Below are positions 1 to 4,387 of a DNA stretch of 4,387 nucleotides, in pieces; position 1 is the stretch's first letter; the number at the start of each line of letters is the position of its first letter. The position numbers were made by a program, and so were the translations under genes. The stretch lies in the IMG/VR virus record IMGVR_UViG_2698536307_000013, one strand, 5' to 3'. Below the pieces are notes generated by a model. That model ran no database searches. It saw nothing but the letters and a program-made list of their open reading frames with translations, and was not told the DNA's origin. The DNA comes from a virus (Duplodnaviria > Heunggongvirae > Uroviricota > Caudoviricetes).

Positions 1-27
1 TGCACGATAGAGCAGGTGGTGAACTGA
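1..27 (+). CDS. M: 3' terminal fragment (last 8 codons plus TGA stop) of an upstream copy of tail tip protein M; 5' end lies outside the window
   Basis: Bases 1-27 encode CTIEQVVN-stop and are identical to the 3' end of the complete M gene at 913-939. The same ATGA-style 1-nt overlap with the following ATG at 27 is present. Confidence 0.5.
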   Translation, partial: CTIEQVVN

Positions 28-526
28 TGCAGGATATTCACGAAGAAAGCCTGAACGAGTCGGTTAAGTCAGAGCAGTCACCGCGTGTGGTACTCTGGGA
101 AATCGACCTGACGGTGCAGGGCGGTGAGCGCTATTTTTTCTGCAATGAACTGAATGAAAAAGGGGAGCCGGTCACCTGGCAGGGGCGGCAATATCAGGCG
201 TACCCGATTGACGGCAGCGGCTTTGAGATGAACGGGAAGGGCAGCAGTGCCAGACCGTCGCTGACGGTGTCCAATCTGTTTGGCCTTGTCACCGGAATGG
301 CGGAGGACCTGCAGAGCCTGGTGGGGGCCACGGTGGTCCGCCGCCGGGTGTATGCCCGTTTTCTGGATGCGGTGAATTTTGTGGCGGGCAATCCGGAAGC
401 GGACCCGGAGCAGGAGCTGAGCGACCGCTGGGTGGTGGAGCAGATGTCAGAGCTGACGGCCATGACAGCCTCGTTTGTGCTGGCAACACCGACGGAGACG
501 GACGGAGCGCTGTTTCCCGGTCGCAT
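1..526 (+). repeat. Copy A of a diverged direct repeat (M 3' end plus L 5' ~500 bp); offset 912 bp to copy B
   Basis: Direct comparison of 1-526 with 913-1438 shows about 15 single-base differences (hand-counted), all at codon third positions. The window begins inside the repeat, so it may extend upstream. Confidence 0.85.
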
Positions 527-605
527 ACTTGTGCAGCTGATTGACCAGCGGGTGCAGGCGGTGATGCTGTCCATGCGACGTGACGGAGGAATGCTGAGTG
601 GCTGA
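27..605 (+). CDS. Truncated, chimeric tail tip assembly protein L-like ORF (192 aa): L residues 1-167 fused to an unrelated 25-aa C-terminal tail (LVQLIDQRVQAVMLSMRRDGGMLSG), possibly the 3' end of a tape-measure (H-like) gene; probably a pseudogene or remnant
   Basis: The first 167 aa are identical to the full L at 939-1637. Identity ends near nt 524-527, after which the ORF runs in a different sequence context and stops at 603-605, overlapping the M start. It lacks the Cys-rich C-terminus of L. Confidence 0.6.
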   Translation: MQDIHEESLNESVKSEQSPRVVLWEIDLTVQGGERYFFCNELNEKGEPVTWQGRQYQAYPIDGSGFEMNGKGSSARPSLTVSNLFGLVTGMAEDLQSLVGATVVRRRVYARFLDAVNFVAGNPEADPEQELSDRWVVEQMSELTAMTASFVLATPTETDGALFPGRILVQLIDQRVQAVMLSMRRDGGMLSG

Positions 606-939
606 GATAAAAACGCTGCATCTGGTCCCGCGTGAAGGGATGCAGGTGAGTGAGAAGCCGTCGGTGGTGAGGGTGCGGTTTGGTGACGGTTATGAACAGC
701 GCCGCCCCACAGGGCTGAATCCTCAACTGAAGACGTTTCAGGCGGTGTTCCGGGTGACGGATGAGTCAACCCGGCGCTGGCTGGAAGAGTTTTTATCGTG
801 GCATGGTGGTTACCGTGCCTTTTTGTGGCGACCGCCGAAACATAACCGGACGGTGAGGGTTGTGTGCCGTGAGTGGAGTGTCACGGATAATGCCCGGTAC
901 AGTGATTTCAGTTGCACGATAGAGCAGGTGGTGAACTGA
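598..939 (+). CDS. M: Tail tip protein M (lambda gpM homolog), 113 aa
   Basis: The protein aligns with lambda gpM as recalled: a shared RFGDGY motif and an identical EQVVN C-terminus. GTG start at 598 sits 7 nt after a GGAGGA Shine-Dalgarno (585-590). Stop TGA 937-939 overlaps the L ATG by 1 nt. Confidence 0.88.
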   Translation: MAEIKTLHLVPREGMQVSEKPSVVRVRFGDGYEQRRPTGLNPQLKTFQAVFRVTDESTRRWLEEFLSWHGGYRAFLWRPPKHNRTVRVVCREWSVTDNARYSDFSCTIEQVVN

Positions 940-1438
940 TGCAGGATATTCACGAAGAAAGTCTGAACGAGTCGGTTAAATCAGAGCAGTCACCGCGGGT
1001 GGTGCTCTGGGAAATTGACCTGACGGTGCAGGGCGGTGAGCGGTATTTTTTCTGTAATGAGCTGAATGAAAAAGGGGAGCCGGTCACCTGGCAGGGGCGG
1101 CAATATCAGGCATACCCGATTGACGGCAGCGGTTTTGAGATGAACGGGAAGGGCAGCAGTGCCAGACCGTCGCTGACGGTGTCCAATCTGTTTGGTCTGG
1201 TCACCGGGATGGCGGAGGACCTGCAGAGCCTGGTGGGGGCCACGGTGGTCCGCCGCCGGGTGTATGCCCGTTTTCTGGATGCGGTGAATTTTGTGGCGGG
1301 CAATCCGGAAGCGGACCCGGAGCAGGAGCTGAGCGACCGCTGGGTGGTGGAGCAGATGTCAGAGCTGACGGCCATGACAGCCTCGTTTGTGCTGGCAACA
1401 CCGACGGAGACGGACGGAGCGCTGTTTCCCGGTCGTAT
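913..1438 (+). repeat. Copy B of the diverged direct repeat (within the intact M 3' end and L 5' region)
   Basis: Matches 1-526 at an offset of 912 bp; see copy A. Confidence 0.85.
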
Positions 1439-1637
1439 CATGCTGGCGAACACCTGTATGTGGACCTACCGCTCTGATGAGTGTGGTTACACGGGCGGGG
1501 CTGTGGCGGATGAGTTCGATAAACCCACCACGGATATCCGTAAGGACAGATGCAGCAAGTGCATGCGCGGGTGTGAGATGCGCGGCATGGTGGCTAATTT
1601 TGGCGGTTTCCTTTCCATCAATAAACTTTCGCAGTAA
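939..1637 (+). CDS. L: Tail tip assembly protein L (lambda gpL homolog), 232 aa, with a C-terminal cysteine cluster
   Basis: Strong similarity to lambda gpL as recalled (VVLWEIDLT, GGERYFFCNE, VTWQGRQYQ, FGGFLSINKLSQ C-terminus). The 699-nt length matches lambda L. ATG at 939 follows an AGGTGG Shine-Dalgarno (926-931). The track's 912 start is an upstream extension into M and is not used. Confidence 0.93.
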   Translation: MQDIHEESLNESVKSEQSPRVVLWEIDLTVQGGERYFFCNELNEKGEPVTWQGRQYQAYPIDGSGFEMNGKGSSARPSLTVSNLFGLVTGMAEDLQSLVGATVVRRRVYARFLDAVNFVAGNPEADPEQELSDRWVVEQMSELTAMTASFVLATPTETDGALFPGRIMLANTCMWTYRSDECGYTGGAVADEFDKPTTDIRKDRCSKCMRGCEMRGMVANFGGFLSINKLSQ

Positions 1638-1647
1638 ATCCTGTTTT

Positions 1648-2391
1648 ATGACACAGACTGAATCAGCGATTCTGGCGCATGCCCGGCGGTGTGCGCCTGC
1701 GGAGTCGTGCGGCTTCGTGGTGAGAACGCCGGAGGGGGAGCGGTATATCCCTTGTGTGAATATCTCTGCAGAGCCGGAGGCGTATTTTCGTATTGCACCG
1801 GAAGACTGGCTGCGGGCAGAGATGCAGGGGGAGATTGTGGCACTGGTCCACAGTCATCCCGGTGGTCTGCCCTGGCTGAGCGAGGCCGACCGGCGGCTGC
1901 AGATAAAAAGTGCACTGTCCTGGTGGCTGGTCTGCCGGGGGGACATTCATAAATTCCGCTGTGTGCCGCACCTGACGGGACGGCGCTTTGCGCACGGGGT
2001 GACGGACTGTTACACGCTGTTCCGGGATGCCTACCATCTGGCGGGAATTGATATGCCGGATTTTGAGCGTGAGGATGACTGGTGGCGCAACGGCCAGAAC
2101 CTGTACCTGGACAATATGGCGGTCACCGGCTTTTACCGGGTGCCCCTGTCCTCTGCACAGGCGGGCGATATTCTGCTGTGCTGCTTTGGCGCATCGGTGG
2201 CCAATCATGCCGCCATATACTGCGGCAACGGTGAACTGCTTCACCATCTGCCAGAACAACTGAGTAAACGGGAGAGGTATTCTGAAAAATGGCAACGACG
2301 AACGCATTCTGTCTGGCGTCACCGCCACTGGCACGCATCTGCCTTCACGGGGATTTGCAACGATTTGGCCGCCGCCTCAGCCTGTACGTGA
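1648..2391 (+). CDS. K: Tail tip assembly protein K (lambda gpK homolog), 247 aa: N-terminal JAB/MPN (JAMM) metalloprotease-like domain plus C-terminal NlpC/P60 cysteine peptidase-like domain
   Basis: JAMM motif HSHPGGLPWLSEAD (H68-x-H70-x7-S78-x2-D81) with candidate upstream Glu (E19). NlpC/P60-like Cys in GVTDCYTLF (C121) and His in NHAAIY (H187). ATG at 1648 lies 11 nt after the L stop. The track ORF starting at 1387 overlaps L and is rejected. The start is somewhat uncertain; the next in-frame ATG is at 1822. Confidence 0.88.
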   Translation: MTQTESAILAHARRCAPAESCGFVVRTPEGERYIPCVNISAEPEAYFRIAPEDWLRAEMQGEIVALVHSHPGGLPWLSEADRRLQIKSALSWWLVCRGDIHKFRCVPHLTGRRFAHGVTDCYTLFRDAYHLAGIDMPDFEREDDWWRNGQNLYLDNMAVTGFYRVPLSSAQAGDILLCCFGASVANHAAIYCGNGELLHHLPEQLSKRERYSEKWQRRTHSVWRHRHWHASAFTGICNDLAAASACT

Positions 2392-2969
2392 ACACGGCAG
2401 CGGAAGCCATCCGTGCCCTGTCGATGCAGATGCCGGGCTTTCGCCGTCAGATGAACGAAGGCTGGTACCAGATACGTATTCGCGGTGAGGACACGGCACC
2501 GGAGGCGGTGTACGCCCGTCTTCACGAACCTCTGGGTGAGGGGGCGGTCATCCATATTGTGCCGCGACTGGTCGGAGCCGGAAAGGGCGGACTGCAGATT
2601 GTGCTGGGGGCGGCGGCCATCGTGGGGTCGTTCTTCACGGCCGGGGCATCAATGGCGTTATGGGGTTCAGCCCTGGCAGCCGGTGGTTTTTCTGCCACCA
2701 CGATGCTGTTTTCACTGGGGGCTAGCATGATACTGGGCGGTGTGGCCCAGATGCTGGCACCGAAGGCAAAAACACCGGATTACCGCGCAACGGATAACGG
2801 TAAACAGAACACGTATTTTTCCTCACTGGACAATATGATTGCCCAGGGTAACCCGATGCCGGTGCCTTATGGTGAAATGCTGGTTGGTTCACGACGGATA
2901 TCCCAGGACATCAGTACCCGTGATGAAGGCGGTGGCGGAAAGGTTGTGGTTATCGGGCGGCAGGGGTAA
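2289..2969 (+). CDS. I: Tail tip assembly protein I (lambda gpI homolog), 226 aa; N-terminal ubiquitin-like region and a Gly/Ala-rich hydrophobic central segment
   Basis: Similarity to lambda gpI as recalled (ARICL.GDLQRFGRR, AVIHIVPR, KQNTYFSSLDNM.AQGN, VVVIGR). GGGAGAGG Shine-Dalgarno at 2270-2277. Overlaps the K 3' end by 103 nt in a different frame, as in lambda. Confidence 0.9.
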   Translation: MATTNAFCLASPPLARICLHGDLQRFGRRLSLYVNTAAEAIRALSMQMPGFRRQMNEGWYQIRIRGEDTAPEAVYARLHEPLGEGAVIHIVPRLVGAGKGGLQIVLGAAAIVGSFFTAGASMALWGSALAAGGFSATTMLFSLGASMILGGVAQMLAPKAKTPDYRATDNGKQNTYFSSLDNMIAQGNPMPVPYGEMLVGSRRISQDISTRDEGGGGKVVVIGRQG

Positions 2970-2984
2970 AAAGAATAAAACAAT

Positions 2985-3000
2985 CCCGCAGAGTTGCGGG
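2985..3000. other. Short GC-rich hairpin (CCCGCA-GAGT-TGCGGG) 16 nt after the I stop; possible RNA 3' stability element, or a terminator on the minus strand where it is followed by a T-rich run
   Basis: Perfect 6-bp inverted repeat with a 4-nt loop. On the + strand no T-tract follows. The reverse complement is followed by ATTGTTTTATTCTTTTT. Confidence 0.3.
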
Positions 3001-3032
3001 GACAGACAAAGATTAACGTTAAGGAGTTATTT

Positions 3033-3137
3033 TTGTTTCTGGTGCTCGGGCAAAAAAACATTAACGCAGAGAAATTATTAGCACCACAGTCAGTTTGTGA
3101 AAATGTGAAGATATTCAGAAGTTTTATTCCGTCATGA
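3033..3137 (+). CDS. Hypothetical 34-aa mini-ORF (MFLVLGQKNINAEKLLAPQSVCENVKIFRSFIPS) in the I-J spacer; speculative
   Basis: Consensus Shine-Dalgarno AAGGAG (3021-3026) lies 6 nt upstream of TTG at 3033. The ORF stops at TGA 3135-3137, immediately before an intrinsic terminator. The segment is AT-rich compared with its flanks. No homology is recognised. Confidence 0.15.
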   Translation: MFLVLGQKNINAEKLLAPQSVCENVKIFRSFIPS

Positions 3138-3139
3138 TG

Positions 3140-3169
3140 CAGGCATCCTCCGGGATGCCTGTTGTTTTT
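3140..3169 (+). terminator. Rho-independent (intrinsic) terminator-like hairpin with T-tract in the I-J intergenic region
   Basis: Stem CAGGCATCC (3140-3148) pairs with GGATGCCTG (3153-3161) around loop TCCG, followed by TTGTTTTT (3162-3169). Perfect 9-bp GC-rich stem. Confidence 0.6.
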
Positions 3170-3203
3170 GTGCGTAACAGTTATCACAGTAAAGGGTGAG
3201 ACA

Positions 3204-4387
3204 ATGGGCAAAGGTGGCGGCAAGGCGCACACACCGCGCGAGGCGAAGGACAATCTCAAATCCACGCAGATGATGAGTGTGATTGATGCGATTGGTGAGG
3301 GACCGATAGAAGGCCCGGTGAAGGGGCTGCAGAGTATCCTGGTGAACAAAACCCCGCTGACGGACACGGACGGCAATCCTGTGATACACGGTGTGACCGC
3401 GGTCTGGCGCGCCGGGGAGCAGGAGCAGACACCACCGGAAGGCTTTGAGTCCTCCGGAGCTGAAACCGGACTGGGCGTGGAAGTGACGAAGGCAAAGCCG
3501 GTAACGCGCACCATTACGTCCGCGAACATTGACCGCCTGCGGGTTACCTTCGGGGTGCAGTCACTGGTGGAGACCACCTCAAAGGGTGACCGTAACCCGA
3601 CGTCTGTCCGCCTGCTGATTCAGCTTGAGCGTGGTGGTAAATGGATGACGGAAAAGGATGTCACCATTAACGGCAAGACCACCTCACAGTACCTGGCGTC
3701 GGTGATTCTGGATAATCTGCCTCCCCGTCCTTTTAACATCCGGATGGTCCGGGAGACAGCGGACAGCACCACGGACCAGTTGCAGAATAAGACGCTCTGG
3801 TCGTCATACACCGAAATCATCGATGTGAAACAGTGCTACCCGAACACGGCGATTGTGGGGCTGCAGGTGGATGCGGAGCAGTTTGGCGGTCAGCAGATGA
3901 CGGTGAACTACCATATCCGCGGTCGCATCATCCAGGTACCGTCAAACTATGACCCGGAAAAACGCACTTACAGCGGCATCTGGGACGGCAGCCTGAAACC
4001 GGCATACAGCAACAACCCTGCCTGGTGCCTGTGGGACATGCTGACTCACCCGCGCTACGGCATGGGAAAACGTCTGGGGGCGGCGGATGTGGACAAGTGG
4101 GCGCTGTATGCCATCGGGCAGTACTGCGACCAGATGGTGCCGGATGGCTTCGGGGGCACCGAGCCGCGGATGACCTTCAATGCGTACCTGGCACAACAGC
4201 GTAAGGCGTGGGATGTTCTCAGTGATTTCTGCTCGGCGATGCGCTGTATGCCGGTATGGAACGGTCAGACGCTGACGTTCGTTCAGGACCGCCCGTCGGA
4301 TGTGGTGTGGCCGTACACCAACAGCGATGTGGTGGTGGATGATAACGGCGTGGGGTTTCGCTACAGCTTCAGCGCCCTGAAGGACCG
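3204..4387 (+). CDS. J: Host specificity / central tail fiber protein J (lambda gpJ homolog), N-terminal 394 codons; 3' end lies beyond the window
   Basis: Open frame from ATG 3204 to the window end with no stop. The N-terminus MGKGGGKAHTPREAKDNLKSTQ and long stretches (TTSKGDRNP, NKTLWSSYTEIIDVKQCYPNTA, AWCLWDMLTHPRYGMGKRLGAADVDKWALY, FCSAMRCMPVWNGQTLTFVQDRPSD) match lambda gpJ as recalled. Shine-Dalgarno-like AAGGGTGAG precedes the ATG. Confidence 0.93.
   Translation, partial: MGKGGGKAHTPREAKDNLKSTQMMSVIDAIGEGPIEGPVKGLQSILVNKTPLTDTDGNPVIHGVTAVWRAGEQEQTPPEGFESSGAETGLGVEVTKAKPVTRTITSANIDRLRVTFGVQSLVETTSKGDRNPTSVRLLIQLERGGKWMTEKDVTINGKTTSQYLASVILDNLPPRPFNIRMVRETADSTTDQLQNKTLWSSYTEIIDVKQCYPNTAIVGLQVDAEQFGGQQMTVNYHIRGRIIQVPSNYDPEKRTYSGIWDGSLKPAYSNNPAWCLWDMLTHPRYGMGKRLGAADVDKWALYAIGQYCDQMVPDGFGGTEPRMTFNAYLAQQRKAWDVLSDFCSAMRCMPVWNGQTLTFVQDRPSDVVWPYTNSDVVVDDNGVGFRYSFSALKD

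Follow-up and report, generated by a model that had tools for sequence, protein, structure and literature searches.

Does this lambdoid tail operon carry a genuine tandem duplication of its M-L region, with a truncated L gene that runs into another gene, or were two pieces of different prophages set side by side by assembly? The question is raised by a stretch of 4,387 nucleotides (here called the window), which is the whole of a 4.4-kb draft contig, with no sequence upstream of base 1. A preliminary description of the window had read it as a diverged partial duplication that creates a chimeric L-like ORF. The answer depends on what the two sides of the junction are, on whether the junction occurs anywhere else, and on where the two copies of the repeat come from.

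Layout of the window and its repeat

As first described, the segment 1-526 is found again 912 bases further on, at 913-1438. The ungapped alignment has 512 of 526 positions identical, which is far more than chance would give. The 14 differences between the copies (positions 50, 68, 86, 92, 104, 131, 143, 149, 200, 221, 284, 287, 296 and 524) are without exception synonymous and at third codon positions of the L frame, and the copies do not differ at all across 297-523. The repeat extends to window base 1, which is the contig edge. The gene order M-L-K-I-J given in the preliminary description is supported by Pfam for all five genes. The window contains the following features, where L001, L004 and L009 denote single-copy loci used for comparison and L003 a sibling draft scaffold.

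1-26, + strand: M gene 3' end (last 26 bases), left piece; identical to 913-938, and L003 begins on the same base
27-526, + strand: L codons 1-167 (of codon 167, the first two bases), allele a, left piece; PF05100 profile positions 3-142 of 206
527, + strand: odd base A at the join, fitting the natural alleles of neither flank
528-605, + strand: tape-measure (H-like) 3' end, 25 codons and stop in the native frame, start of the right piece; 100% identical in L001, L004 and L009
27-605, + strand: chimeric 192-aa ORF, L(1-167)::tape-measure (C-terminal 25 aa), probably a join artefact; product on no record
598-939, + strand: intact M gene, minor tail protein, 113 aa; PF05939, E=3e-29; same protein in L003 and L004
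913-1438, + strand: second repeat copy, M end and L codons 1-167, allele b; it differs from copy 1 only at sites where L004 differs from L009
939-1637, + strand: intact L gene, 232 aa, Cys-rich C-terminal domain present; full-length PF05100 match, E=9e-92
1648-2391, + strand: K gene, JAB and NlpC/P60 domains, 247 aa (Pfam)
2388-2969, + strand: I gene, tail assembly protein, 193 aa; PF06805
3204-4387, + strand: 5' part of J, tip attachment protein, cut off by the contig end; PF24801, PF13550

The start of I differs between gene callers: it is GTG 2388 in L003 and L004 (193 aa), and an upstream start inside K in a further locus, L002 (210 aa). An ATG at 2289 would make I 226 aa long, with a K/I overlap of 2289-2391.

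I and J are separated by a spacer of 234 bases (2970-3203), the GC content of which is 0.40 versus 0.58 for the window. It is conserved in 49 lambdoid loci, in which 31 variants are found, and it is not known from lambda. Because the spacer varies by indels of lengths not divisible by 3, its small ORF (2994-3137) is non-coding. A conserved 40-base block (3099-3138) is followed on the + strand by a terminator-like hairpin with a T-run (3139-3162), in which one compensatory C-G/U-A pair is found. A second hairpin (2985-3000) reads as a terminator of the - strand, and a promoter-like site of the - strand lies at 3101-3074. The search of the whole window against Rfam, spacer included, gave no match. 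The spacer could act as a regulatory terminator or as a small RNA within the late tail operon. A 220-aa ORF on the minus strand (2867-3529), which lies opposite the spacer and the adjoining ends of I and J, has been called as a gene in L003 and L004; it has no Pfam match and was probably miscalled owing to the GC-rich coding DNA.

The join and its occurrence elsewhere

The junction was mapped against L001, a single-copy locus of a complete genome with the order tape measure-M-L-K-I-J. The L register continues to 526 and the tape-measure register runs from 528 in its native frame. Thus, the 167 L codons attributed to the first copy in the preliminary description are borne out, and the switch to another sequence is indeed located near 524-527, although it is sharper than described, with L to 526, an odd A at 527 and tape measure from 528. 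The sequence after the switch is not an unrelated tail, as it had been called. A comparison with tape-measure genes gave 100% identity from 528 over the whole of 528-605, which confirms the accompanying guess of an H-like 3' end, and the homologues of this segment are annotated as tape measure protein in their records. Its stop codon overlaps the start of the intact M, as had been noticed, and the same overlap is present at the native H-M junctions of single-copy loci. The join between L and the tape measure is in frame for both genes and lies on a codon boundary; the comparison with L001 revealed no usable microhomology.

The resulting 192-aa ORF contains the N-terminal HDI β-sandwich domain (PF05100 positions 3-142, E=2e-62), and it matches residues 1-169 of lambda gpL (E=1e-86). 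The C-terminal four-Cys [4Fe-4S] domain is missing. The ORF switches after residue 167 and has no Cys beyond it, in agreement with the earlier statement that the truncated product lacks the Cys cluster of L.

When a 171-base query over the junction was run against 5,426 complete E. coli genomes and 50,697 phage records, none of its matches spanned the junction, and all of them ended at window 526. A degenerate 25-mer over the junction was found neither in GTDB representative genomes nor in IMG/VR or JGI metagenomes. The junction is likewise absent from 120 lambdoid IMG/VR loci, and the only locus with two L starts among the fetched lambdoid loci is L003. At the protein level, exact look-ups of the 192-aa product, with either I or X at residue 167, found no entry in the protein collection, the look-up with X being uninformative because L003's own X-containing product is also missing from this collection. 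Among 5.8 billion protein clusters there is no homologue that covers the tape-measure-derived tail, and coverage reaches a plateau at 88%. The junction was therefore reproduced in no independent sequence, and the proposed arrangement M'-L'::tail-M-L is found in this one contig alone.

Other unusual L proteins were encountered in the search of the protein clusters. P0016, P0025 and P0039 contain internal tandem repeats of ~50-100 aa with differing junctions, and each of them is a singleton on a draft contig of 1-4 kb. They are likely to be further false duplications in L, a gene in which short-read assemblies evidently tend to generate such constructs. P0020, P0030 and P0034 are 314-aa L variants that read past the normal C-terminus (…GGFLSIKNFRSKS…) into an alternative K frame, which points to a frameshift close to the A-rich end of the L gene in a small number of assemblies.

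Origin of the two pieces

Copy 1 has only two mismatches (188 and 189) to the full-length L of the complete genome NZ_CP148357 (L009), and window 528-939, which comprises the tape-measure 3' end and M, is 100% identical to the same genome. These matches indicate that prophages exist which share the H 3' end and M and yet differ in L. All 14 differences between copy 1 and copy 2 recur as differences between L009 and L004, two independent single-copy loci. The copies are thus two circulating alleles, the one known in single copy from L009 (copy 1) and the other from L004 (copy 2). Divergence after a duplication is ruled out, because every difference is a synonymous third-position change that already existed between the alleles; the word 'diverged' in the preliminary description was in this respect misleading. 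L004 (CYEV01000136.1) carries the allele of the right piece (99.9%) in an ordinary single-copy H-M-L-K-I-J locus, and its last base is the last base of the window.

The L alleles of L009 and L004 are near-identical over the HDI domain and diverge sharply after codon 167 (window 1436-1560, codons about 166-207). This sequence pattern suggests that the Fe-S domain may be exchanged modularly among lambdoid prophages. Over 297-523, the left allele of the window is the same as its own copy 2, and the left allele of L003 differs at 10 sites. The mosaic is also present in L009 and hence represents a natural allele; it points to possible patchwise exchange (gene conversion) among the L genes of co-resident prophages.

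The sibling scaffold L003 (CYCT01000156.1, 4,491 bp, GCA_001286285.1) has first and last bases that coincide with those of the window, and all complete proteins are the same in both. It has the same two-piece layout, with a single N (position 630) between the pieces. Its left piece contains 103 bases more of the normal L frame and reaches codon 201 before the N. This piece is plainly a part of another prophage's ordinary L, attached by scaffolding. The right piece of L003 (631-4491) starts within one base of window 528 and has 99.92% identity to window 528-4387. Two independent real duplications that have one breakpoint in common and the other not are implausible, whereas shared nodes of an assembly graph account for the same right start and the different left breakpoints of the window and L003.

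The matches listed by exact look-ups of the K and I proteins were all short draft contigs of E. coli, three of them for K. Among other draft contigs that match parts of the window at 100% identity, breaks lie at 1165, 1841, 1955, 1969 and 2349, and such scattered breaks are typical of a repeated region beyond short-read resolution. The region is present in a median of 2 and in up to 12 copies per E. coli genome. Besides the position of the repeat at a contig edge, the ends of the window match those of draft scaffolds (both ends in L003, the last base in L004).

The ends of the pieces were compared with natural alleles by using the 49-mers that adjoin each of them, in a sample of about 120 lambdoid IMG/VR loci and E. 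coli loci. In the alleles that contain the 49-mer 478-526, the next base is C (13) or T (7); in those with the 49-mer 528-576, the base before it is T (20) or C (6). The base before the contig start (T/G/C) and the base after the contig end (C/G/T) are also polymorphic in natural alleles, being T or G and C or G, respectively, when the adjoining 49-mer is shared, and all four piece ends of the window are k-mer branch points among these alleles. With about 24% of the sample sites being polymorphic, all four ends would fall on such sites by chance with a probability of about 0.003. For the two inner ends alone the value is about 0.06, so that their coincidence is only moderately improbable by chance. 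The T/C branch before 528 was not reproduced from one prophage pair, L009 and L004 both having T, and appears only across the wider allele sample. The left-piece end of L003 is not a branch point in the sample. The distance of 49 bases between the contig start and the first allele-specific site was also used to derive an assembler k-value, but the resulting k=50 fits no common odd-k assembler and was rejected.

The base at position 527 cannot be assigned cleanly to either side. No A is found at this position in either natural set, the sharers of the L-side 49-mer or those of the tape-measure-side 49-mer. ATA at L codon 167 occurs in 1 IMG/VR contig, compared to at least 120 with ATY, and no tape-measure allele with an A before CTTGTG was found. 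The character at the join is A in the window and N in L003, and a single N at joins is a convention of scaffolders or gap fillers. The best explanation of A527 is a placeholder or an error at the join. If the source record truly has an A at 527, the sequence was made continuous by reads or by a gap-closing step.

It is very probable that short-read assembly put two pieces of paralogous prophages in tandem, which makes the M-L duplication and the chimeric L an artefact. The source would be a short-read draft of an E. coli strain with several near-identical lambdoid prophages. The left piece (1-526), with the M end and L codons 1-167, would come from one prophage with allele a. The right piece (528-4387) would stem from a second prophage and extend from the tape-measure 3' end through M, L (allele b), K and I into J. 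The identical tape-measure-3'/M segment together with the differing 5' part of L would create alternative paths in the assembly graph. The shorter path (1-526) may then have been kept separate and placed before the longer contig rather than beside it, and one base at the join would stay unresolved or wrong in the window, with a single N in its place in the sibling scaffold. In that case the tandem duplication would be false, and both the L'::H' junction and the 192-aa ORF would be spurious. The clean appearance of the join would follow from the same process: allelic differences at third codon positions plus one stray base give an in-frame join on a codon boundary, and the divergence of the alleles just past codon 167 places the mosaic boundary, and hence the graph branch, at the domain boundary of gpL.

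What the data directly show is that there are two pieces, which alleles they represent, that their boundaries are branch points and that a sibling is joined by an N; the exact assembler or software step is what we infer from these observations. An assembly misjoin had been named beforehand as the scenario that would refute a duplication, and it is now favoured by the N-joined L003, the alleles and the branch points. A biological M-L duplication is most likely wrong in view of the N-join of the sibling, the natural alleles, the branch-point ends and the unique junction. Several points count against an artefact. The implied overlap of ~912 bases is hard to reconcile with the exact steps of a standard scaffolder. 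The join of the window reads A and not N, and the breakpoint lies in frame at the HDI/Fe-S boundary of gpL, where a selectable real fusion would look alike.

If the duplication is an artefact, it calls for caution. Tail operons are present 2-12 times per pathogenic E. coli genome, and short-read scaffolds may falsely duplicate them. Such false duplications can yield clean in-frame 'fusion genes' with joins at domain boundaries, which are then recorded in protein databases as L proteins of partial or unusual length.

Real-junction readings and comparison with known systems

A real duplication is an unlikely alternative. It would require that illegitimate (unequal) recombination between lambdoid prophages or co-infecting phages joined L codon 167 to the last 25 codons of the tape measure. 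The resulting layout, H-M-L'(1-167)::H(C25)-M-L-K-I-J, would have native translational coupling at both ends, and expression with the late operon would be expected. No N interrupts the window at the join, which would suit such an event, but L003 has an N and a different left breakpoint, and A527 matches neither parent. Both genes are joined in frame at a codon boundary, the breakpoint in L coincides with the end of the HDI domain (residues 1-166) and the tail corresponds to the C-terminal helix of gpH, all of which would suit a real fusion; the absence of microhomology at the join speaks against it, and since the copies are pre-existing alleles, a blunt join between phages would be needed. E. 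coli is not known to possess end-joining. In the graph of a true duplication, a resolved loop would also produce a contig start 49 bases before the first allele-specific site, yet both inner ends lie on natural polymorphic branch points, and the junction is present in no other genome, phage, metagenome or protein record.

It is highly unlikely that the adjacency is real without being a local duplication, i.e., that a deletion between tandem prophages fused L' to the next H 3' end and the repeated unit is a whole prophage: pathogenic E. coli are known to harbour prophages in tandem or next to each other, an E. coli genome can contain as many as 12 copies of the region and the local sequence would look the same as the window, but the junction is unique, A527 is anomalous, the ends lie on branch points and the left allele of L003 runs on normally in L beyond the breakpoint of the window. 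With this variant included, a real junction is improbable, and the case for it comes from one contig.

The consequences of a real junction can be derived from the lambda tail tip. The tail segment 528-605 aligns to about residues 826-850 of lambda gpH, and thus lies inside the gpH helix 818-849, which forms a coiled coil that is held by the gpI tripod in the lumen of the tip (PMC10721106). Lambda gpL consists of the HDI domain (residues 1-166) and the Fe-S domain with Cys173/182/205/212 (PMC10721106). If the junction were real, the 192-aa protein could replace gpL in the last tail ring or tether the tape measure there, and it might have a dominant-negative or modulating effect on tip assembly, possibly against co-resident or superinfecting lambdoid phages; as a whole, this reading is very unlikely. 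It would nevertheless represent a rare natural fusion of a hub-protein domain to the terminus of a tape measure, and provide a handle on how the tail tip holds the C-terminus of the tape-measure protein.

The lambda tail-tip module H-M-L-K-I-J shares its gene order and all Pfam families with the window. The intact L of the window (939-1637) contains, like lambda gpL (PF05100; PDB 8iyk chain L), an HDI domain and a Cys-rich Fe-S domain, whereas the 192-aa ORF is devoid of the domain that carries these four cysteines in lambda and ends in a tape-measure helix. A head-to-tail repeat of ~1 kb in the late operon would, as in the classical lambda duplication mutants, be within the packaging limits. 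Fresh real duplications in lambdoid phages have identical copies and usually show microhomology or homology at the novel joint. In contrast, the copies in the window are two circulating alleles and their joint is without homology.

The preferred reading, an artefact of assembly, has its closest parallel in the false 'heterotype' duplications of vertebrate assemblies (Rhie et al., VGP; bioRxiv 10.1101/2020.05.22.110833), in which diverged alleles form bubbles and their contigs meet in the scaffold with a gap. There too, two diverged versions of a locus become alternative paths of the graph, and the shorter version forms its own contig in tandem beside the longer one, typically with a gap in between, which in L003 is a single N. 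The window differs from these cases in that paralogous prophage copies in a haploid bacterium take the place of parental haplotypes, and in that its join is a base and not an N. The false duplications of the VGP assemblies mimic the duplication of exons or genes.
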